DNA of 20,000 nt from an uncultured virus (IMG/VR IMGVR_UViG_3300044657_000873) (lineage: Duplodnaviria > Heunggongvirae > Uroviricota > Caudoviricetes), in the IMG/VR virus record IMGVR_UViG_3300044657_000873. One strand, written 5' to 3'. The translations under genes and the position numbers were made by a program. The notes beneath the pieces are model-generated. The model made no database searches and was not told where the DNA came from. It was given only the letters and a program-made list of their open reading frames with translations. Below, piece by piece: positions 543 to 15,041 of the stretch. Within the stretch, counting starts at the first letter, position 1, and each line of letters begins with the position of its first letter.

Positions 543-1067
543 TCAAATAGTATAAACCTTAATACCAGATCCTATCTCGCGGGCGAGATTACAATTCTTA
601 TCGCAGTCGTCGTAAAAGTAAACCAAGTCAAACGCTTGGCACAGGGTTTCCAAAACCTTTTTCTTTTCCACTGCGATGTCTAGCTTGACCTCATCAGAAC
701 CAACACCAAAAACTTTCATTGGCCTAACATTGTGTCCTAACAAAAAGTCACCTATTGCAACAACCACATTATCTAACCTCGCAGTTAAGATATAAACAGC
801 GTGGCCCTCTCTGTAAACCTCTTCGGCAAGTGCCATGAGAAAAGTCGGATTTGCATTACGAATAAACTCCTCTGAATTAAATTCTGAGAAGTCATACTCC
901 TCACCATCCTCTAAAAAGTCGGAATTGTATTCGCTTGGGTTTAATCTGCGAACAGGTAAGCCTTGACTTCCGCGATTATTTTGGCGACGAACAATTACAC
1001 GACAGTCAGTAGTTGCCAGCGTGTCATCAAAATCAAATACAAATGCTTTTTTCATGTTTTTTCTCAT
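543..1067 (-). CDS. HAD-superfamily phosphatase-like protein
   Basis: HAD motif I FVFDFDDTLA, motif II ILTAR, motif III Lys (EKKKVL) and motif IV FYDDCDKN. Confidence 0.8.
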   Translation of the reverse strand: MRKNMKKAFVFDFDDTLATTDCRVIVRRQNNRGSQGLPVRRLNPSEYNSDFLEDGEEYDFSEFNSEEFIRNANPTFLMALAEEVYREGHAVYILTARLDNVVVAIGDFLLGHNVRPMKVFGVGSDEVKLDIAVEKKKVLETLCQAFDLVYFYDDCDKNCNLAREIGSGIKVYTI

Positions 1068-1073
1068 ATTACT

Positions 1074-1102
1074 ATTATAGTCTACGGTTGCTGATTTGTC
1101 AA
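1074..1102 (-). promoter_or_regulatory. sigma70-type promoter, perfect consensus
   Basis: TTGACA-17 nt-TATAAT, with the ATG of the HAD gene 6 nt after the -10 box. Confidence 0.8.
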
Positions 1103-1579
1103 GTGGGATTCTTTAATTTTTTCAAGAATTTGTCCAAGTGCCTCCTCCATAAAGATATGACCGAACCCCAAGGCTCGCAGTGACTGGTCAATTTCTCGTT
1201 GGTCTTTCAGTATTTGTTCATATGTTTCTGGTACATCGCCATCAGGAGTAAACTCTGCATACAATTTCCAGATAGATTTTTCTCTACCCTTATGTGGTTT
1301 GATGTTCAATTTTTGGTTATCAATCTGCATTGGGTGCTGGGTAACAAACTTCTCGTCTCTTAGTTCTTCCTTGATCTCTGCTATCAGATCAATAAAAATC
1401 GTCTGCATACTAGCAGTAACACCAATACCATGAATAATCTTAGAGTTACCGTCGATCATTTCCTTTACTGGTGCATTTGATGGTTCATTGGTTACTCTGC
1501 CCAGATAGAATCCTGCAACCGCAAAACCTATCAAAAAAACCCAACCCATAATAACATCTTTTGTTTTATATTCACTCAT
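1082..1579 (-). CDS. Hypothetical protein with N-terminal transmembrane helix
   Basis: 165-aa ORF, GGAG Shine-Dalgarno (SD) upstream, hydrophobic segment VIMGWVFLIGFAVAGFYLG. Confidence 0.7.
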   Translation of the reverse strand: MSEYKTKDVIMGWVFLIGFAVAGFYLGRVTNEPSNAPVKEMIDGNSKIIHGIGVTASMQTIFIDLIAEIKEELRDEKFVTQHPMQIDNQKLNIKPHKGREKSIWKLYAEFTPDGDVPETYEQILKDQREIDQSLRALGFGHIFMEEALGQILEKIKESHLTNQQP

Positions 1580-1607
1580 TTCTCAACTCCATAATAATAT
1601 CCATTAA

Positions 1608-1859
1608 TTAGCTTGACTCCAGACCTGATTTTGGAAGCCCCAAATGCACCAGTCTGACCTGATTCCCTACCTGATTCTCGACCTGATCCCTGACCTGATT
1701 CCTGACCTGATTCTCGACCTGACGCCTGACCTGACGCCTGACCTGACGCCAGACCTGATCCCAGACCTGATCCCAGACCTGATACAAGACCTGACCCCTG
1801 ACCTGACCCCAGACCTGATTCTCGACCTGATCCCAGACCTGATTCCTGTTATTTTTCAT
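1608..1859 (-). CDS. xxQV tetrapeptide-repeat mini-protein 5 (16 units plus a unique 15-aa tail)
   Basis: MKNN-(xxQV)16-RLVHLGLPKSGLESS. The start lies within the ATGAAAAATAA overlap with the upstream paralogue. Confidence 0.6.
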   Translation of the reverse strand: MKNNRNQVWDQVENQVWGQVRGQVLYQVWDQVWDQVWRQVRRQVRRQVENQVRNQVRDQVENQVGNQVRLVHLGLPKSGLESS

Positions 1860-2304
1860 TAGTTTGATCCCTGACCTGATTCCTGACCTGACGCCAGACC
1901 TGATTCTCGACCTGATCCCAGACCTGACCCCAGACCTGATCCACGACCTGACTCACGACCTGATCCACGACCTGATTCCTGACCTGACGCCAGACCTGAT
2001 TCTCGACCTGATCCCAGACCTGACCCCAGACCTGATCCCTGACCTGACTCACGACCTGATTCATGACCTGATTCCTGACCTGACGCCAGACCTGATTCTC
2101 GACCTGATCCCAGACCTGACCCCAGACCTGATCCACGACCTGACTCACGACCTGATCCACGACCTGATCCCAGACCTGATTCTCGACTTGACCCACGGCC
2201 TGATCCCAGACCTGACCCCTGACCTGATCCCAGACCTGATCCAAGACCTGACCCCAGACCTGATTCCTGACCTGATTCCTGACCTGACTCCAGTTATTTT
2301 TCAT
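1849..2304 (-). CDS. xxQV tetrapeptide-repeat mini-protein 4 (36 units)
   Basis: MKNN-(xxQV)35-xxQT-NEK (one unit reads QA). Contains three copies of an 8-unit, 96-bp higher-order block. Confidence 0.65.
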
Positions 2305-2485
2305 TAGTTTGATCCCAGACCTGACCCCCGACCTGACGCCAGACCTGATCCACGACCTGATCCACGACCTGACCCCAGACCTGACCCCTGACCTGACCCC
2401 TGACCTGATCCCAGACCTGACCCCAGACCTGATTCTCGACCTGACCCCTGACCTGATTCCTGACCTGATTCCTGTTATTTTTCAT
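2294..2485 (-). CDS. xxQV tetrapeptide-repeat mini-protein 3 (14 units)
   Basis: MKNN-(xxQV)13-WDQT-NEK, with 11-nt start/stop overlaps on both sides. Confidence 0.6.
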
Positions 2486-2558
2486 TAGTTTGATCCCAGA
2501 CCTGACCCCAGACCTGATTCTCGACCTGATCCCAGACCTGATTCCTGTTATTTTTCAT
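2475..2558 (-). CDS. xxQV tetrapeptide-repeat mini-protein 2 (5 units, 27 aa; below the ORF-track cutoff)
   Basis: Manual translation [27 protein letters not shown]. Confidence 0.55.
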
Positions 2559-2703
2559 TAGTTTGATCCCTGACCTGATTCCTGACCTGACGCCAGACCT
2601 GATTCTCGACCTGATCCCAGACCTGACCCCAGACCTGATCCCTGACCTGACTCACGACCTGATTCATGACCTGATTCCTGACCTGATTCCTGTTATTTTT
2701 CAT
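2548..2703 (-). CDS. xxQV tetrapeptide-repeat mini-protein 1 (11 units)
   Basis: Start placed at ATG 2703 (MKNN, as in the paralogues) rather than 2802, which would overlap the upstream gene. Confidence 0.6.
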   Translation of the reverse strand: MKNNRNQVRNQVMNQVVSQVRDQVWGQVWDQVENQVWRQVRNQVRDQTNEK

Positions 2704-2734
2704 TTTTAATCCGGCCCCACTGTTTTGTAGAAAT

Positions 2735-3181
2735 TTAGTCACGGGCACGATGTTCTCGTTCCTGTTCCTTATCATATTCACGTTGATATGTACAATGTAC
2801 ACTAAAACCAGCGGGAATAGTTACGGGGCCATGAATGGGATGCTCCACGGTACGTTCTTGATAAAGAATCAAGTAAGGTCCAATCAAACTTTCTTCATTC
2901 CAATTTTGTGGAATATACATTTTCACTCCATCCAAAGAATCAAGCACATGACGAGAACCAACATTCTCACCCGGAACCAACTGTAGGATTTTCTTCTTGG
3001 ATTTTGTATAACCTTCTGGAACCTTGTTGGAAATAGTCAGTGCCAAATCTCCTTGCCAGATACGATCATTAACCGTACAAGCCTCACTAAATCGCAAAGG
3101 TTGTCCCGGCTGAACCTTATCGTGTTTACCATTCTTGATCTTTGCCGCATGTTCAACAATTACCTGAATTGCATTCGTCAT
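2735..3181 (-). CDS. Conserved small His-motif protein ('QGD...H...HPxH...IPAG...QREY'), usual neighbour of DUF6745 genes
   Basis: Motifs WQGDL, GSRHVL, VEHPIHGPVTIPAG and YQREYD; SD AAGGAG. The family link is from recall, not from a search. Confidence 0.65.
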   Translation of the reverse strand: MTNAIQVIVEHAAKIKNGKHDKVQPGQPLRFSEACTVNDRIWQGDLALTISNKVPEGYTKSKKKILQLVPGENVGSRHVLDSLDGVKMYIPQNWNEESLIGPYLILYQERTVEHPIHGPVTIPAGFSVHCTYQREYDKEQEREHRARD

Positions 3182-3200
3182 AATTACTCTCCTTTAAAAT

Positions 3201-4073
3201 TTAAGTTCTTCCAATAACATTACACTTACGATCAACATCATTACCAAGCCACTTTTGAGCCTGTTCACAATTTTCTACATCATTATCTACCCCCATAACA
3301 AACACTCTACCAGTTGGGCAAGTTGCAACAAAACGTTTGCCAAAGATTTTTGTATTGTACAATGCCTCAATTGTATTTTCAATATCATTATGTCGGCTAT
3401 CAATACACTCGGCATCAGTTTCTTCAAGATATTTTGTCCAACCATAACGATTGATCATGATAGATCTAATATCTTGATTACTTTCACCGTGAATTTGATG
3501 CAAAGTTAGAGTTTCTGGACTCATAACAATTTGTTCAGTAACTCGATGTCCCTCGATACTCCATATACAAAATCCATCACTAAACTTTACCGAAGGTCCA
3601 TCTTCACAATGCAAAACTTTATCTTGCATACGGATCACTTCTGGTCTATCTTGAAATACAAGATATGTTTCGTCATTATGAGTATAGGACGACCACCATC
3701 CACAAACCTCTGCGAGCTTAAACAATGGGTAAATGCCATCAACTAGTTCCACATTAAGAACTTCACACATGTAAGAATAAAAGGAGAGCCACGCCTCATT
3801 ATATCCAAGCATCATACCGTTTAGTGTTTCATTTTTAGAAATATAAAATCCATTGTCAGTGTGAAATTTCTGTATAATTTCAATAGCTTCGATTGGAGAC
3901 TTAGCAAAGAAAATATGTTTGGCTTCGGGAAGTCCAGCGATGGTGTGGACTTCTTTAGCAAACTCAATGCATTTTTCTCGGTCGCAAGGTCCGGTGGATG
4001 TACCAATCTGAATCCAACGATCCACATGTTGTTTCATTTTTGCTTCTTGTTCGGATGTAAGACTTTCAATCAT
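3201..4073 (-). CDS. DUF6745-like protein
   Basis: N-terminal IESLTSEQ...WIQIGTSTGPCDRE...KSP; central AWLSFY...CGWW...DRP...LHCEDGPSVKFSDGFCIWSIEGHRV; IHGESNQDIRSIMINRYGW; C-terminal CPTGRVF. Confidence 0.7.
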   Translation of the reverse strand: MIESLTSEQEAKMKQHVDRWIQIGTSTGPCDREKCIEFAKEVHTIAGLPEAKHIFFAKSPIEAIEIIQKFHTDNGFYISKNETLNGMMLGYNEAWLSFYSYMCEVLNVELVDGIYPLFKLAEVCGWWSSYTHNDETYLVFQDRPEVIRMQDKVLHCEDGPSVKFSDGFCIWSIEGHRVTEQIVMSPETLTLHQIHGESNQDIRSIMINRYGWTKYLEETDAECIDSRHNDIENTIEALYNTKIFGKRFVATCPTGRVFVMGVDNDVENCEQAQKWLGNDVDRKCNVIGRT

Positions 4074-4112
4074 TTTTTACTCCAGTGGCTAAAGTTAGTA
4101 ATAATACCGTCA

Positions 4113-5339
4113 TCATACTAGTCCCTCAATTATTTTTCCGCCATTTGCAATCTTCATAGGTCTTCCTCTTTTACTTATATAAGTAGTATCAGCATCAATA
4201 CCAAGTGCTGCAACTGTACTAGCCATGAGATCTTGTGCGGTATACGCTAGACCATCAATCATCTTTCCATCTTTAGTCGTTGCACCAATAGCTCGACCCC
4301 CTTTGAATAAACCTCCAGATACAAATGCACTCCATGTCGCTGCCCAATGGTCACGACCAGCATTCTGATTAATTCGAGGAGTTCTACCAAACTCTCCCAT
4401 CATCATTATAGCAGTTGTATCCCACATGTCAAGCCTCTTTAGGTCAAGAATGAGAGTTGATACTACTTTATCTAATTCGGGAAGTTTAGTGTTTAAAGTA
4501 TCATGAGTCATTTGATGAAGATCCCATCCTCCAAATCCAATCTCAACAAATGGGACTCCTTGCTGTAGAAGACGACGAGCAATCAATGCACTATTGCCAA
4601 ATCCAGTAGCTCCATATGCGTTTCTTACTTGTTGAGGTTCCGTATTAATTTTCAACGCATTCATCTGCGGGGAAGTATTTAGTTTAATAGTTTTGTCATA
4701 CAGATTCTTATGGTCTATAGGAAGTTCCCCACGATTAGAATCAATAAAATTTTTCTCTAAAGTAGAAAGGAATTCTAGGCGATTTTTATTTAGATTTCCT
4801 CCCAAATTATTAATTTGACCATTAGAATTTACTAAAAAGGGATCATAAGTAGTTCCTAAGAATCCACCTCCAATACTTCTTGTGCCTACAGAAAAGAATG
4901 CCGGAATCTCAAGATCTTTCCTACTCCTGCCAAGCTCATAAGATACTACAGACCCCAAAGATGGATGAACAACTGTAGGATTAGGTTTAAATCCCGTGTG
5001 TATATGATATGTCCCTCGCATGTGATCAGCTTCACCAGTAGACATACTTCTTACGACAGAGAAATCTTTTCCAAGTTTTGCCAGTTCAGGCATGAGTTCA
5101 CTAATCTGGAAATCCCCTGCCGTATTGATCGGCATATGAGGACCACCCTCTTTAGTTCCGGGTTTCAAATCCCACATATCAATAGTTGGTGGACCGCCTC
5201 CCAACCAAATCAAAATTGCTCCCTTGCGGTCATTACGAAGTTGTGATGAGTTTTTAACAATGGTTTGACCAAAGGAAAGCGATGTGGAAGCAAGAGAAGC
5301 AAGTCCACCAGCGTGTTGTAAGAAGTGTCGTCTATTCAT
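4113..5339 (-). CDS. DUF1501 family protein with twin-arginine signal peptide
   Basis: Tat motif MNRRHFLQ; ILIWLGGGPPTIDMWDLKP, GGWDLH and GEFGRTPRIN...GRDHW are DUF1501 signature motifs. Confidence 0.9.
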   Translation of the reverse strand: MNRRHFLQHAGGLASLASTSLSFGQTIVKNSSQLRNDRKGAILIWLGGGPPTIDMWDLKPGTKEGGPHMPINTAGDFQISELMPELAKLGKDFSVVRSMSTGEADHMRGTYHIHTGFKPNPTVVHPSLGSVVSYELGRSRKDLEIPAFFSVGTRSIGGGFLGTTYDPFLVNSNGQINNLGGNLNKNRLEFLSTLEKNFIDSNRGELPIDHKNLYDKTIKLNTSPQMNALKINTEPQQVRNAYGATGFGNSALIARRLLQQGVPFVEIGFGGWDLHQMTHDTLNTKLPELDKVVSTLILDLKRLDMWDTTAIMMMGEFGRTPRINQNAGRDHWAATWSAFVSGGLFKGGRAIGATTKDGKMIDGLAYTAQDLMASTVAALGIDADTTYISKRGRPMKIANGGKIIEGLV

Positions 5340-5408
5340 GATTTCTCTCTCATTTAGTTAAAATAAAATTATTAGTCACAGAAGGTTGCTTGATGTTTAA
5401 CTTCCATC

Positions 5409-5436
5409 ATTGTATACGAAGAATGTTATTTGTCAA
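5409..5436 (-). promoter_or_regulatory. sigma70-type promoter upstream of the DUF1501 gene
   Basis: TTGACA-16 nt-TACAAT. Confidence 0.6.
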
Positions 5437-5677
5437 CTCCTTCAACAATCAGTCTTATCCAACTGTTTTGTATATCGTTAGTTAATCGTTCTCTATATTT
5501 ATCTGGTGTAAGATTTGTTCTATGAGCAACACCATCAACCCAACCATCCATATAAATATCATACACCATAATCTTCAATACTTTCATTTGTGTGTCGTTC
5601 AGACCCCAAGATTTAATAGCGTGAGCATAATGGTCTGCGTTCCAGTCGTCTAGTTTTATTCCCAATGGGTCACTCAT
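5426..5677 (-). CDS. Hypothetical protein
   Basis: 83-aa ORF, SD GAAGGAG, ATGA overlap with the upstream gene; ends EGVDK. Confidence 0.7.
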   Translation of the reverse strand: MSDPLGIKLDDWNADHYAHAIKSWGLNDTQMKVLKIMVYDIYMDGWVDGVAHRTNLTPDKYRERLTNDIQNSWIRLIVEGVDK

Positions 5678-5886
5678 TTATCAACTCCTTCATCTATCAT
5701 TGGGTTATCTGTCATATCATACAGTCCAAGTTCTTGGGACTGCTGGGTTAATTCTTTTAAAACTTCCTCTCTTTTTGTGAGAGAAACAAATGTTAAATCT
5801 GCTGGGTAATGCTCACACCCCGTAATATATCCATTAGGAGTATCGTAACATATTGTGCCGCATTTTTCACATTTAAAATTGCTCAT
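5674..5886 (-). CDS. Small Cys/His (CxxC...C...CEH) protein, paralogue of 6950-7237
   Basis: First 31 aa nearly identical to the 6950-7237 product; SD GGAG. Confidence 0.7.
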   Translation of the reverse strand: MSNFKCEKCGTICYDTPNGYITGCEHYPADLTFVSLTKREEVLKELTQQSQELGLYDMTDNPMIDEGVDK

Positions 5887-6868: not shown

Positions 6869-6966
6869 TTGTCACCTATTAGTGATATTATAATGCAGGT
6901 CAGACTGGAACCAATCAACATTCCAGAAAGAAATCCTCTAAGCCAGCGATCAAACGCCTTGCTCAT
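6865..6966 (-). CDS. 33-aa hydrophobic peptide
   Basis: Manual translation MSKAFDRWLRGFLSGMLIGSSLTCIIISLIGDK*. ATGA overlap with the next gene and a junction motif at its start. Confidence 0.5.
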   Translation of the reverse strand: MSKAFDRWLRGFLSGMLIGSSLTCIIISLIGDK

Positions 6967-7237
6967 TTATCACTGTTTTATAAGTATGCCACCAGACTTT
7001 ACATTTATGACACTCAGTTCTGTATTTTGGATCAATAATCATTTTAATGGTTTGTAGTGGAGTCGTAACCGTTTTTGTATCGTGGCACAAGGGGCAAATT
7101 TCTAATCTTGACTCAATACATTTATTTGGAACATCAATATATTTTAAGTCCGCTGGGTAATGTTCGCACCCTGTAATGTAACCATTAAGAGTATCGTAAC
7201 ACATTGTGCCGCATTTTTCACATTTAAAACTACTCAT
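6950..7237 (-). CDS. Cys-rich zinc-binding hypothetical protein
   Basis: CEKC...CEH module shared with 5674-5886, plus CPLC...CHKC. Confidence 0.7.
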   Translation of the reverse strand: MSSFKCEKCGTMCYDTLNGYITGCEHYPADLKYIDVPNKCIESRLEICPLCHDTKTVTTPLQTIKMIIDPKYRTECHKCKVWWHTYKTVINEQGV

Positions 7238-9504: not shown

Positions 9505-9656
9505 TAGATTTTTAATCTTTTGCGATACCTTGGAGTGGTCGTACACTCCGCTGCAATCTATTGTCTCATAATGGGTAAGAAAGCAAAACTTCACCCAATA
9601 ACTTTTTTATACAAATTCTTACGAGACTGTGGCACTGGGCTACCATTACCACAAAG

Positions 9657-9730
9657 TAGGAATGGCGGGATTCGAACCCGCACTTGACGAGGCTTAAACT
9701 CGTTGTCTCTGCCAGTTGGACTATATTCCC
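9657..9730 (-). tRNA. tRNA-Leu(TAA) with short variable loop
   Basis: GGGAATA...; anticodon arm ACGAG-TTTAAGC-CTCGT; T arm GCGGG-TTCGAAT-CCCGC; discriminator A; no encoded CCA. Confidence 0.85.
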
Positions 9731-9810
9731 AAAAGTGTCTATACTAATATTCTGATTTAAGTTTAGAAGATTTTATTTCCTTATGTCAGTCAGTAGTTGA
9801 TAATTTTAAG

Positions 9811-9882
9811 TAGCTCTATTCCGATTCGAACGGAAATCAACTCTTTAGAAGAGAGTTATGTTATCCCTTACACCATAGAGCC
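9811..9882 (-). tRNA. tRNA-Arg(TCT)
   Basis: Acceptor GGCTCTA/TAGAGCT; anticodon arm ACTCT-CTTCTAA-AGAGT; T arm TTCCG-TTCGAAT-CGGAA. Confidence 0.9.
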
Positions 9883-9887
9883 ATAAG

Positions 9888-9931
9888 TAGACTGGGAGGG
9901 AATTGCACCCCCGTAAGCTCTACGAGCTACA
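9888..9931 (-). pseudogene. Orphan tRNA-like 3' half (variable-arm hairpin, T arm, acceptor strand)
   Basis: AGCTC-GTA-GAGCT hairpin, then GGGGG-TGCAATT-CCCTC, then CCAGTCT-A. No 5' half fits between it and the upstream tRNA. Confidence 0.5.
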
Positions 9932-9936
9932 TCAAA

Positions 9937-10011
9937 TGGGGTTGCTCGGATTCGAACCGAGAACATCATCCGTTATGAGCGGAGTCCTCTAACCAATTGA
10001 GGTACAACCCC
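9937..10011 (-). tRNA. tRNA with CAT anticodon (probably Ile2; elongator Met not excluded)
   Basis: Acceptor GGGGTTG/CAACCCC; D arm CCTC/GAGG; anticodon loop CTCATAA; T arm CTCGG-TTCGAAT-CCGAG. Lacks initiator features. Confidence 0.9.
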
Positions 10012-11715: not shown

Positions 11716-12540
11716 TTAGAAGCCTACCTCTGATTCGTAAAACTCTAATTCATCATCGTCATCGTAATTCTCATAAACCGCTTCTTCAAGTTGTTCACGG
11801 GCGATAGCGATGACTTCGTACTCCGACACTCGCATCTTCTGACAGCTACAGTCAGATGGGACACTGACAATATCTTTTGGGTTAAACTTTACCAAGACAA
11901 CAACGCCAGCGTTTCCTGCCCAATCGCAAGCGTACTCGTAAGTACCGACATGCAGACCACCAGCACAAGATTGTCTATGGTCATCACAAACTTGTCGTCG
12001 TTTCATACCGCACTTGTCACCGACATTATTACGGAATGTTTTGCCAGTATAAATGTCAACTAGGTCTCCTTCGTTAAGTTCACCATTCTTGACATCAATA
12101 GTATCGCCACGATAAGATCGAACACCTTTGTAGCCAACCATCATACCATCATCAGTAATCGGCAGACCCTTGTGGCTTGACCAATTGTAGGATTCCTGAA
12201 CCGCACGTTCGCTCACGTTATCATAAAGATTTGTCAAATAGTTAAGCATGGGCTGATGAGGAAAACCTTGCTGGATCATCTCAATGACCCGACTGGTAGG
12301 TTGATTGGCAACCTGCTCGCCCTCAAAGTGCAAGAACCCATCACGAAACTCAAAGCTACCCTCTGACCAGTTCTCGATCTCGCTACCAGTATTGATTAGA
12401 CGAACAAACTCGTCAGAGTCACCAACATGTACGCACTCTACAAGACCAGTGTACTGCGGGTGGGTATGGTCAAACATATGAGGCTGACCATTAAAAACTA
12501 CAGTCCAGTGATTGTCGTTAGATTTAGTGTGAATAAGCAT
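11716..12540 (-). CDS. rIIB: rIIB-like protein
   Basis: LPITDDGMMVGYKGV, CAGGLHVG and VKFNPKDIVSVPSDCSCQKMRVSEYEV are typical of the rIIB C-terminal domain; lies downstream of rIIA. Confidence 0.85.
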   Translation of the reverse strand: MLIHTKSNDNHWTVVFNGQPHMFDHTHPQYTGLVECVHVGDSDEFVRLINTGSEIENWSEGSFEFRDGFLHFEGEQVANQPTSRVIEMIQQGFPHQPMLNYLTNLYDNVSERAVQESYNWSSHKGLPITDDGMMVGYKGVRSYRGDTIDVKNGELNEGDLVDIYTGKTFRNNVGDKCGMKRRQVCDDHRQSCAGGLHVGTYEYACDWAGNAGVVVLVKFNPKDIVSVPSDCSCQKMRVSEYEVIAIAREQLEEAVYENYDDDDELEFYESEVGF

Positions 12541-13062: not shown

Positions 13063-15006
13063 TTATACTGTACACATAGGGCGGGATGTTGAGGATTTCA
13101 AAGTCCCAGAAATATATTCTGCAACAATCGCCTTGTTTGACATGATCTCAGATTTAGAAAGAATTGTCAACATTTTATGACGATCATTCCATTCGTCCAT
13201 CATTTCTTGCAGCGTGTCACACTTGGTCATCTCAACAGCAACGCCAAGACTCTTACAGATGTCTGCAACCTCAGTGTTCTCGCAGGTTTTTGCAAGCTCA
13301 ACGATCTCACGAACTTCATCATCATCATGGTCAACGTATTCGTTGATCGACTTGAACCTATCCAGATCACTACTATTGAACTCGAAAAAAGTTTTTGGTG
13401 CTTTCTTTGCGTACTCTCTCGTAAGGTAATCATCCAGATGGATAAAGTCACCCTTACGAAATGCTGCGGTCTTGAGGAAAGCAGTCTTGAGTCCAATCAA
13501 ATTGATCTCACCGATATGCTCCTTGGAAATCTTGAGTGTAGAACTGATCTGATAATTATTACCAGTAAGCCCACCACTACCACCAACAGGCTTGTTGCGA
13601 TTAATCTCAACGTACACAATCTCAGAACCATCAATCTCGATCTCTGTTTCAAGCCAGTATCCGAGATCGCTGTATCCCCAACCCACGCGATTGGAGTTGA
13701 ACCGTAAAGTTTTACACTTACTTGTTGTTCCAGAAGATACACGATGAACTTTTGGTAGATTATCCAAGTCCTTTAGCATTTCTACTGGAATGTTACACTC
13801 CAACGCTTGTGCCAAGTCCTTGAAGATATATAAGGTATGACCACTTGGCATATCTTTTAGGTATGACTTAATACGAGTCTGCATACGATCTTTGTGCAGA
13901 TAATACTCAGCATTAACATTTGCACTGATGTTTTTCGTATGATACTTCTCGCTGCCGCGATAGTTGGACTGCCAGTACGTCACCGATTCTGCTGGTTCGG
14001 GCAGTGCATAGCAATCTAGGTTGTTGCGACCCACGAAATGACCAAGGCGATGCTGGCCAAGAGTTTCTGCTAGTGCTGCCTTCTTGAACGGAGTATCCTC
14101 TGCCTCGATCTGGTCAATAGCAATCTCGCTGAGACTATCTTTTACTGACGCAAACTTAGCCTTGAGTGCTGCTTTGGTCTTGTCGGTCATCGACAGATTC
14201 TCACGAGCAGTATCAAACTCTAACTCTCCAAGGTCAAATTTTAAGTAACCGTCAACGTCGAACTCATCTAACGAATCTGGAATCTTGTAGGCGATGTTAC
14301 CCATGAGAGCATACATGCTACCCCAAGATGGAGTCAGGCCGAAGTTATCACCCTTGAAAAAGTACTTGTCACGCATCTCTTGACACTTACGAATTACATG
14401 CTGGTTGTTGATCTTTGGAATTGTTCCATCCCAAAATAAGAATACTTTTTCAGCGGCAGTCTCGAACTCGTTAACCTTACCGTTGACAGTCAACTTGACC
14501 TCAAGACCATTAGGCTCGTCAGTTGGTGCTGACCCTAGAGGTAAAACCTTTGGCACTCGCTTCTCGTCACGCATACATTGATATGTTCTGACTACTCCAT
14601 TTTTGAAACTACGAACGGTGAACGCATCGCACAAAGCGTATGGAGACAATGATCCCACACCAAATGCACCGATCAATTCATTGGTATCTCGCTTGGTGCT
14701 GACCCCAATAGCACTGTAAATATCAGCAATCTCATTGTCTGCTAGACCTGTACCGTAATCCCTGACACAGAACCAAGGTTCAAGCTGGGTAGGTAGATGA
14801 ATGTCAAACGGTACGTCCTGAGTACCAGCGACAACGTGACTATCGTGAGCATTACAGGACAATTCTCGGATGACCGCTAATTCTTTATCAGAATAGATTT
14901 TATCACTCAGCAAATCCAGAATGAACGCGACATCTCCAATAACTACGTCACGCTGCTCAAAATTGTCTGCGATCACTACGTCTTGTGGTGGGGTTTCTAA
15001 CTTCAT
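13063..15006 (-). CDS. rIIA: rIIA-like protein with N-terminal GHKL/Hsp90-like ATPase domain
   Basis: LSDKIYSDKELAVIRELSCNAHDSH, RDYGTGL, STKRDTNELIGAFGVGS, TDEPNGLEV and ARENLS. ATG 15006 has a GGAG SD. Confidence 0.9.
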   Translation of the reverse strand: MKLETPPQDVVIADNFEQRDVVIGDVAFILDLLSDKIYSDKELAVIRELSCNAHDSHVVAGTQDVPFDIHLPTQLEPWFCVRDYGTGLADNEIADIYSAIGVSTKRDTNELIGAFGVGSLSPYALCDAFTVRSFKNGVVRTYQCMRDEKRVPKVLPLGSAPTDEPNGLEVKLTVNGKVNEFETAAEKVFLFWDGTIPKINNQHVIRKCQEMRDKYFFKGDNFGLTPSWGSMYALMGNIAYKIPDSLDEFDVDGYLKFDLGELEFDTARENLSMTDKTKAALKAKFASVKDSLSEIAIDQIEAEDTPFKKAALAETLGQHRLGHFVGRNNLDCYALPEPAESVTYWQSNYRGSEKYHTKNISANVNAEYYLHKDRMQTRIKSYLKDMPSGHTLYIFKDLAQALECNIPVEMLKDLDNLPKVHRVSSGTTSKCKTLRFNSNRVGWGYSDLGYWLETEIEIDGSEIVYVEINRNKPVGGSGGLTGNNYQISSTLKISKEHIGEINLIGLKTAFLKTAAFRKGDFIHLDDYLTREYAKKAPKTFFEFNSSDLDRFKSINEYVDHDDDEVREIVELAKTCENTEVADICKSLGVAVEMTKCDTLQEMMDEWNDRHKMLTILSKSEIMSNKAIVAEYISGTLKSSTSRPMCTV

Positions 15007-15041
15007 CGTAATCTCCAAAAAAGTGGTTGGTTGTGCAGCCT

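Follow-up and report, generated by a model that had tools for sequence, protein, structure and literature searches.

In a 20,000-nucleotide stretch of an uncultured Caudoviricetes virus (IMG/VR record IMGVR_UViG_3300044657_000873), hereafter the window, a gene of the DUF6745 family and a small gene with histidine motifs (the partner) are followed by five short open reading frames (ORFs) built on repeated x1-x2-Gln-Val tetrads, which we call mini-genes. We think it probable that the mini-genes are the tetrad module of DUF6745 in detached form, made as separate proteins that would re-associate in trans with the repeat-less core. At the level of sequence, homology, the mutual exclusivity of internal tracts and free arrays, repeated switching between the two states, the grammar of the genes and their codon signature together show the splitting of the module; that the mini-proteins are translated, bind the core and turn a variable surface outward is what we infer from these observations. 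The original prediction, which had been made from the letters of the window, proposed a repeat module externalised into trans-acting peptides, and it gains support from the exclusivity, from several independent switches and, as far as a prediction goes, from a docking model.

A mini-gene array beside a repeat-less DUF6745 gene

The DUF6745 protein of the window matches PF20530 over residues 111-228 (E 1.4e-18, 67.4 bits against a gathering cut-off of 27) and phrog_31813 in PHROGs (E 4.4e-07). All family-wide conserved columns, meaning those invariant or at least 90% conserved in the 46-sequence alignment A1, are present in it: in window-protein numbering, W20, P60 of the SP motif, G90, W95 and Y99 of YGxHxAWL, H155 and G159 of LHxExGP, and T254 and R256. 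Between the SP helix (KSPIEAIEII...) and YGxHxAWL there is no run of at least five in-phase tetrads, and the protein belongs to the family as its repeat-less form. The partner starts 19 nucleotides (nt) downstream on the same strand. Its invariant columns in alignment A3 are QGD, H78, G101-P102, H114-P115, H117-G118 and the C-terminal D148, and it had no match in Pfam, PHROGs or PADLOC.

Each mini-gene starts with MKNN and continues in x-x-Q-V units, 82 in total over the five ORFs (Table 1). The four junctions are identical 11-nt overlaps (ATGAAAAATAA), so each next mini-gene lies in the +1 frame. These features had been read from the sequence in the original prediction, and all of them were found: DUF6745, the partner and five MKNN-(xxQV)n ORFs on the minus strand at the positions it gave, unit counts of 11, 5, 14, 36 and 16 on recount, four ends in QTNEK, one junction used throughout, and a DUF6745 protein that lacks an internal tract. 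An 8-unit block that makes up the body of mini-gene 1 is present three times in mini-gene 4, and exact repeats of 70-115 nt occur within the region of mini-gene 4 at spacings of 96, 192 and 603 nt.

In at least 20 other loci, the arrays are likewise chains of ATG-started mini-genes, with lineage-specific leaders (MKNLK, MKSVK, MKLKSV, MKTLGK, MTPVK) and tails (QVKKDLK, KELK, QVKTLHQ, SVRGIK, QIKSKMQ), joined by overlaps of -4 (ATGA), -11, -14 or -17 nt or spaced by 4-nt gaps. Chains of leader, (xx[QS]V)n body and tail occur in L004, L006, L008, L017, L018, L022, L044, L047, L049 and others, as they do in the window, and related loci have up to 10 tract-bearing frames each. Start, leader and tail are kept in phages whose DUF6745 proteins are just 30-48% identical, which would be difficult to account for if the genes were not translated.

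The junctions also bear on whether the array is read as one long protein through programmed +1 frameshifting at AAA-TAA-C, with the register kept (..DQT NEKN RNQV..). We regard this as highly improbable. Each junction adds exactly 25 nt (two units and one base), so a +1 shift would continue the tetrad phase, but an ATG and the MKNN leader stand at every junction, and the overlaps and gaps of other lineages share no slippery site and always retain a start codon. The Shine-Dalgarno-like AGGGA precedes the AAA codon by 15 nt, a distance too great for a stimulator of the prfB type, and the docking model described below places a free N-terminal leader in the predicted interface.

A second phage record (G001; 95 kb, 57% complete) is 98% identical over window positions 2354-4300 and has mini-genes 1 and 5 only. 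The 699 nt missing from it fall exactly between the two copies of a 143-nt exact direct repeat, and the difference is either a recent recombination or an assembly collapse. The runs that contain the window sequence are estuary and salt-marsh metagenomes, 15 of which hold at least half of its sampled words. Public contigs from four runs (Logan contigs) all fragment inside the array and none bridges it, so they cannot decide between recombination and collapse. Unitigs with zero differences to parts of mini-genes 3 and 4 are present in runs X1 and X2, which come from separate studies and years, and therefore the middle sequence of the array exists. It is possible, if not what we favour, that the five-gene layout is partly a product of assembly and that the true array has fewer or reordered mini-genes, like the two of G001. 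The near-identity of that record, a difference bounded by repeats of about short-read length and the break in every public contig speak for this. Set against it are the exact unitigs from mini-genes 3 and 4, the consideration that expansion in the window is no more likely than collapse in G001, and the fact that multi-gene arrays are the rule in related loci. Joints reported in run contigs were discounted, since their sides are shorter than 30 letters or their depth is low. In the salt-marsh runs X12 and X15, 18 of 19 array differences placed by hand fell on unit positions 1, 2, 4 and 5; we rejected these as evidence because the short contigs may sit on a paralogous unit. X15 is an RNA run whose contigs cover DUF6745 and the partner as well as stretches of the array, and DNA carry-over in it is possible.

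Internal tracts and free arrays across the DUF6745 family

A profile search of 1.84 billion cluster representatives returned 17,391 members of the DUF6745 family with E no higher than 0.001, of which 10,431 have E of 1e-10 or less, a large family for which no solved fold was found. Among the best 150 cluster representatives, 34 have at least five in-phase tetrad units (QV in 16, SV in 7, AV in 4 and others in 7); the tetrad dipeptides of other lineages are SV, KV, NI, NL, AV and QL. In tract-bearing proteins the tract, one covalent insert of about 5-71 units, follows the N-terminal SPxEA helix and precedes the YGxHxAWL helix. This bears out the claim in the original prediction that many DUF6745 homologues carry an internal QV-like tract after the SP motif. 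In a set of 95 homologues similar in length, no tract is present in the close ones (about 280-296 amino acids), and four of the seven longer homologues that we inspected have a tetrad tract directly after the motif: P0090 with 23 xxQV units, P0081 and P0085 with xxSV, and P0079 with xSQ[LI]. The remaining three have a non-repetitive insert at the same site. Given that tetrad tracts and other inserts share one place, the SP/YGxHxAWL site is an insertion hot spot, of which the tetrad tract is the commonest repetitive filling.

Seventeen of the 32 internal-tract loci start inside the tract at a contig end (L050, L051, L054, L056, L058, L062, L065, L070, L071, L074, L076, L078-L080 and L083-L085). 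Short-read assemblies break in tracts, so the tract lengths given here are minima, tracts are under-represented in databases, and many DUF6745 proteins in databases are cut at the N-terminus. Our search for papers on DUF6745, PF20530, phrog_31813 or phage mini-gene arrays, within a reach that left the supplements of bioRxiv preprints and of subscription journals outside, found none; all that came up were unrelated papers on tetrapeptide repeats and on Ma-LMM01.

For co-occurrence we scored six frames in 86 loci: 80 viral loci, three from metagenome-assembled genomes (MAGs), L002 as the one locus of a single-protein search, the window and G001. The locus scan was seeded with the closer alignment A2, the broad alignment A1 being too diverse. 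Dereplication at 90% identity gave 67 clusters, of which two N-terminally truncated ones were set aside, leaving 65. The test that had been proposed, namely that repeat-less DUF6745 genes occur with free xxQV ORFs and tract-bearing ones without them, came out as expected: free arrays lie within 5 kb in 24 of the 34 complete repeat-less clusters, versus no free same-strand array in any of the 31 clusters with an internal tract (201.5 kb of flank). When both flanks had to span at least 3 kb, 11/17 repeat-less and 0/10 internal-tract clusters had arrays (p 0.001). L023 was scored as free after inspection of its xxRV array. In two further repeat-less records, G006 and G008, arrays on the same contig are more distant, about 20 kb and about 8-10 kb away, respectively. 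An internal tract and free arrays never occurred together in one genome among the loci scored.

The label internal or not internal needs 11 changes on a tree of the C-terminal 205 residues, obtained with a quick LG+G4 maximum-likelihood search, and its well-supported branches force at least five. The clade of the window (L001, L003, L004, L007) is nested among the internal-tract MAG sequences L083-L085, and clustering by BLAST groups the mini-ORFs of the window with tract-bearing DUF6745 proteins.

The partner adjoins DUF6745, directly upstream or downstream on the same strand, in 73 of the 86 loci by an iterated hidden Markov model (HMM), and no other neighbour of DUF6745 is conserved across the loci. 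In L077 (2802-4259), one 486-amino-acid open frame has both a DUF6745 match and a partner match (the latter at residues 379-486). This frame is possibly a fusion of core and partner, which would add Rosetta-stone evidence for joint work.

We also ran the test in reverse, from 80 loci seeded by a five-unit CARGT pattern. Eleven of them are internal tracts and 18 have no QV tract in any protein frame. Another 48 were scored as free without DUF6745; these are mostly monotone microsatellites (LQQV, MSQV, EQVQ), with four genuine arrays among them. Leaving the doubtful L133 and L159 uncounted, there are seven genuine free arrays. DUF6745 lies within 8 kb in three of these and 16 kb away in one, and the remaining three are on fragments that are 4-11% complete. 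The pair at 16 kb is in a complete 190-kb phage (L111 and L232; the latter at G011 146337-149954), where the DUF6745 protein has a non-repetitive insert and the free xxQV mini-genes are 16 kb off, so free arrays may also accompany cores with a non-repetitive insert.

Several observations weigh against the reading of the mini-genes as a detached module. For ten of the 34 repeat-less clusters a 5-kb radius contains no array, and for eight of these the available DNA contains none at all. G007, a 100%-complete repeat-less record of 53.5 kb, has no match to the QV pattern anywhere. Many relatives have a non-repetitive insert at the tract site and, together with the array-less clusters, they indicate that the tetrad tract is not obligatory for family members. 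The Fisher p for 24/34 versus 0/31 (3.4e-10) overstates independence because the clusters are related, the contig ends cut off the upstream flank in 17 of the 32 internal-tract loci, and the quick tree has support below 80 on 26 of its 64 inner branches. The mini-genes of the window, at 27-151 amino acids, are far more uneven in length than those of other lineages (about 50-80 amino acids), which may reflect assembly error. Finally, the RNA contigs of X15 are no proof of transcription, and the complex of core and mini-protein presented below is a model only.

Codon signature of the units and predicted docking

Per-position entropy over 77 QV units of the window places all variation at positions 1, 2, 4 and 5 of the 12-mer (0.96-1.58 bits), which are codon positions 1 and 2 of x1 and x2. 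Of 308 third codon positions 306 are identical, 76 of the 77 units encode Q as CAG and 76 encode V as GTC, and the diversity among units is all amino-acid-changing. In the other genes of the window, CAA and CAG are used 52 and 50 times, and GTC accounts for 31 of 193 Val codons. Other lineages have frozen other synonymous codons: CAA GTT in 50/50 units (L004) and CAA GTC in 108/109 (L017), and in S-V lineages AGC GTG in 34/34 (L061), TCC GTG in 36/36 (L066) and TCA GTT (L018). Since the lineages freeze differing synonymous codons, the Q/S-V pattern is kept at the protein level from lineage to lineage, and within one genome it is uniform at the DNA level. Our reading is concerted evolution by slippage and recombination, with diversifying selection on x1x2. 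The variation of x1/x2 limited by codon position within a genome and the lineage-specific fixed synonymous codons of Q and V are new here. With synonymous sites frozen and codon positions 1-2 of two residues hypervariable, the pattern is a clean case for repeat evolution under diversifying selection.

An open frame alone is weak coding evidence in this array, because the antisense DLIPDL frames are likewise open. What fixes the coding frame is homology to the in-frame internal tracts, the conserved ATG starts, variation at codon positions 1-2 and the lack of TAG at x1 in any of the 77 units, though T, A and G all occur there. We give next to no credence to the reading that the array is a 12-nt satellite without coding function, or an element that acts as DNA (protein-binding iterons, for example), and that its open frames are by-products. 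Such an element would account for a CAGGTC hexamer frozen in 76-77 of 77 units and for a consensus unit with five of its six frames open. It does not account for other lineages that keep the amino-acid pattern with other codons and other dipeptides, for the same repeat in frame inside thousands of DUF6745 proteins, or for conserved start codons, leaders and tails beside an x1 position free of TAG.

Variation at four nucleotide positions that is wholly non-synonymous could also suggest that x1/x2 diversity is written by a targeted mutator, of the kind found in diversity-generating retroelements (DGRs) or another, instead of by selection on slippage products. This is very unlikely in our view. 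The A at unit position 8 is invariant (77/77), which misfits adenine-directed DGR mutagenesis; Pfam finds no RVT_1 domain in the 27 window proteins or in the 95-kb, 57%-complete G001; and G001 has no second array that could be used as template. DGRs do resemble the array: a binding-type surface varies at a few codon positions, and stops do not arise. They differ in having a reverse transcriptase, a template repeat and the adenine rule, none of which was found for the window array (27 window proteins and G001), where the diversity consists of expressed paralogues and units.

The residues at x1/x2 are mostly W, R, Y, D, N, G and S, and in the mini-proteins of the window the hypervariable positions are mostly W, R, E and V, and D, N and G. 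A composition of the W/R/Y/D/N/G/S type is that of protein-binding hot spots.

AlphaFold2 gave models of the DUF6745 protein with a predicted local distance difference test score (pLDDT) of 86.3 and a predicted template modelling score of 0.71, and of the partner with a pLDDT of 89.2. For neither model did Foldseek against PDB return a hit with E of 0.001 or below. In a VIA wide search the best hits were below the noise level of the tool, at Z 5.0 for DUF6745 (55 residues, root-mean-square deviation 3.3) and Z 3.6 for the partner (93 aligned, 4.6). In the ESM Atlas, the partner matched unnamed viral clusters only and DUF6745 matched nothing at 0.8 or above, its own family being skipped.

The original prediction had suggested a multimer check of a repeat peptide with DUF6745. 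In the model that we obtained, the 63-amino-acid protein of mini-gene 3 docks on the core. The ipSAE was 0.80 (0.80-0.81 over three runs), and none of the three controls scored above 0.00, including the one that kept the mini-protein and swapped the core. Among solved complexes, 116 of 157 attain the ipSAE mark, and among mismatched pairs 2 of 215; the counts hold only roughly here because the alignment was self-supplied. The runs share at least 98% of contacts, with a partner-chain pLDDT of at least 88. Leader residues 2-5 of the mini-protein are predicted to pair with core strand 128-131, and over the 14 units modelled contacts are made by Q in 14/14, V/T in 14/14, x1 in 11/14 and x2 in 4/14. 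The constant Q-V face is buried in the model and the most variable position exposed.

These results lead us to propose the following mechanism. The tetrad module (x1-x2-Q-V)n would have been split off the core gene and be encoded as several small proteins in one co-directional string, each with a constant MKNN leader, a body of variable length and, typically, a constant QTNEK tail. A mini-protein would bind the repeat-less DUF6745 core in trans, its leader adding a strand to the core beta-sheet and its invariant Q and V lining the interface, so that the hypervariable x1/x2 residues would face outward. One core with its His-motif partner could then display several alternative surfaces. The array itself changes fast, as units slip and its long exact repeats recombine.

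The mini-proteins may instead be real without binding DUF6745, as substrates of the His-motif partner (akin to the precursors of ribosomally synthesised and post-translationally modified peptides), as decoys or as independent effectors, in which case the exclusivity would reflect a shared pathway. We consider this unlikely. The invariant Asp and His motifs of the partner do suggest a metal site or enzyme, the partner is the most constant neighbour (73/86 loci), and the layout of leader, body and tail resembles precursor peptides. Nevertheless, the tract is covalent in the DUF6745 of most relatives, so that a physical link is the ancestral or a common state, the predicted complex passes with all three controls at 0.00, the core swap included, and no known modifying-enzyme family was detected in Pfam or PADLOC. 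More generally, neither the partner nor DUF6745 matched any enzyme family in these two libraries or any solved fold. PADLOC, a library that covers defence systems only, matched none of eight proteins from this region to a family (E of 0.01 or below).

Possible role and genomic setting

The two conserved genes of the window (2735-4073) have no DNA match in deposited phages. Microcystis phage Ma-LMM01 gp174 matches PF20530 (E 1.3e-14) and is a distant relative, with 26.5% identity to P0090 over the C-terminal part. The adjacent gp175 matches the partner profile with an hhalign probability of 64.6% (E 6.2e-05), and the motifs are common to both. Uracil-DNA glycosylase and DNA polymerase flank the pair, with a clamp loader nearby. 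Supplementary Table S3 of PMC5780444 lists both genes in middle subclass B5; their log2 FPKM (fragments per kilobase per million) is 0 at 0 h and has risen by 6 h to 11.6 and 12.6. Ma-LMM01 is like the window in its PF20530 core and adjacent partner-like gene. It is unlike it in that the insert of gp174 at the tract site is non-repetitive, and there is no mini-gene array in 6.5 kb around gp174/gp175. In the Mycobacterium phage prophiGD102-1, gp38 has about 50 xxQL units and the upstream gp37 is partner-like; both belong to the early region, where Gam, ERF, RepA-like and WhiB genes adjoin them. Tract-bearing systems such as those of P0090 and gp38 share with the window the core domain, the partner motifs QGD..H..HxxHG..QRE..D and an x-x-polar-hydrophobic tetrad with W/R/G and D/A/N at the variable places. 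They differ in having one covalent insert, whereas the window has an insert-free core and a tract split over five genes. These two anchors suggest that the module is non-structural and expressed with replication genes, and a middle-phase, non-structural function is likely.

As to what the variable face meets, our best guess, which is speculation, is a changing target in a host-phage conflict. Tentatively, we suggest a germline-encoded repertoire, in which a conserved two-protein machine, the DUF6745 core with its partner, is armed in trans by a rapidly expanding and contracting library of mini-proteins. Their constant Q-V face would fit into the core, and their hypervariable face, rich in W, R, D and N, would recognise changing targets, for example host defence proteins. 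Binders would then be stored as tandem expressed mini-genes and not produced by mutagenesis or cassette switching, an idea that we hold with the same reserve.

Known systems offer partial parallels. In split and fused pairs of the Rosetta-stone type, as in the window system, a module is either fused or separate and the two states are mutually exclusive, which is a classic signal of parts working together. Such pairs have one detached gene; in the window there is a tandem family of diversified copies of variable length, and the split would create a repertoire. The orphan cassettes of rhs/cdiA and the cassettes of pilin and variant surface glycoprotein genes are mostly silent and replace part of an expressed gene by recombination. 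Like the window, they set alternative modules beside a constant core with repeats that permit recombination. Unlike them, each cassette of the window has its own start, leader and stop, and they are apparently separate proteins. The split form is a natural experiment, since the variable module and the core can be expressed and recombined separately. If the mini-proteins dock as modelled, many alternative surfaces would come from one scaffold without a mutator or DNA rearrangement at the time of use; such a device would be relevant to the arms race between phage and host, and it could be put to use as a compact binder scaffold.

The window belongs to a large T4-like phage, as judged by its rIIA, rIIB, ThyX and UvdE genes (PHROGs and Pfam) and three tRNA genes. 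Table 1 lists the features. The genes around the module all share one orientation, a terminator scan of 900-5500 gave 0 sites, and the operon status of the gene string is inferred from gene order.

Table 1. Features of the window discussed in the text.
Feature	Position	Strand	Remarks
Mini-gene 5, 83 aa, 16 units	1608..1859	-	Own tail RLVHLGLPKSGLESS; identical copy in G001
12-nt tandem array, sense-strand unit NNG NNT CAG GTC	1656..2687	.	Tandem Repeats Finder: period 12, 85.7 copies
143-nt exact direct repeat, copy 2	1800..1942	.	End of mini-gene 4, junction, start of mini-gene 5
Mini-gene 4, 151 aa, 36 units	1849..2304	-	End QTNEK; not in G001
Mini-gene 3, 63 aa, 14 units	2294..2485	-	End QTNEK; not in G001; used in complex model
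Mini-gene 2, 27 aa, 5 units	2475..2558	-	End QTNEK; not in G001
143-nt exact direct repeat, copy 1	2499..2641	.	End of mini-gene 1, junction, start of mini-gene 2
Mini-gene 1, 51 aa, MKNN + 11 units	2548..2703	-	End QTNEK; identical copy in G001
Partner gene, 148 aa, His-motif	2735..3181	-	Iterated HMM; motifs WQGD, H78, HPIHG, YQREY
Repeat-less DUF6745 gene, 290 aa	3201..4073	-	PF20530 and phrog_31813 matches; proposed core/scaffold
Three tRNA genes, Leu(taa), Arg(tct), Met(cat)	9656-10011	-	Rfam scan
rIIB	11716-12540		PHROGs
rIIA	13063-15018		PHROGs
aa, amino acids.

The Rfam scan of the window found no RNA family besides the three tRNAs. We considered a supply of tRNAs for the array and dropped it, since the three decode neither CAG nor GTC.

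Directly downstream of the array is a 165-amino-acid protein (1082-1579, minus strand) with an N-terminal hydrophobic segment; it has no match in Pfam, PHROGs or PADLOC and is not kept beside the module in other loci. On the other side, 39 nt upstream of DUF6745, is a full-length DUF1501 gene (4113-5339, minus strand; Pfam E 1.5e-83) with a twin-arginine-like N-terminus, which looks host-derived. The nearest MAG relatives of the window DUF6745 are from Isosphaeraceae and Phycisphaeraceae and, taken with the DUF1501 gene, they hint at a Planctomycetota-type host. Two perfect 12-of-12 matches to a sigma-70-like promoter occur on the minus strand, one at 1102-1074 just upstream of a HAD/PNK-like gene and one at 4432-4405 inside DUF1501; these are consensus matches only. 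Two CxxC proteins (5674-5886 and 6950-7237, minus strand) are nearly identical over their first ~30 residues (MS.FKCEKCGT.CYDT.NGYITGCEHYPADL) and then diverge, and they are a paralogous pair.

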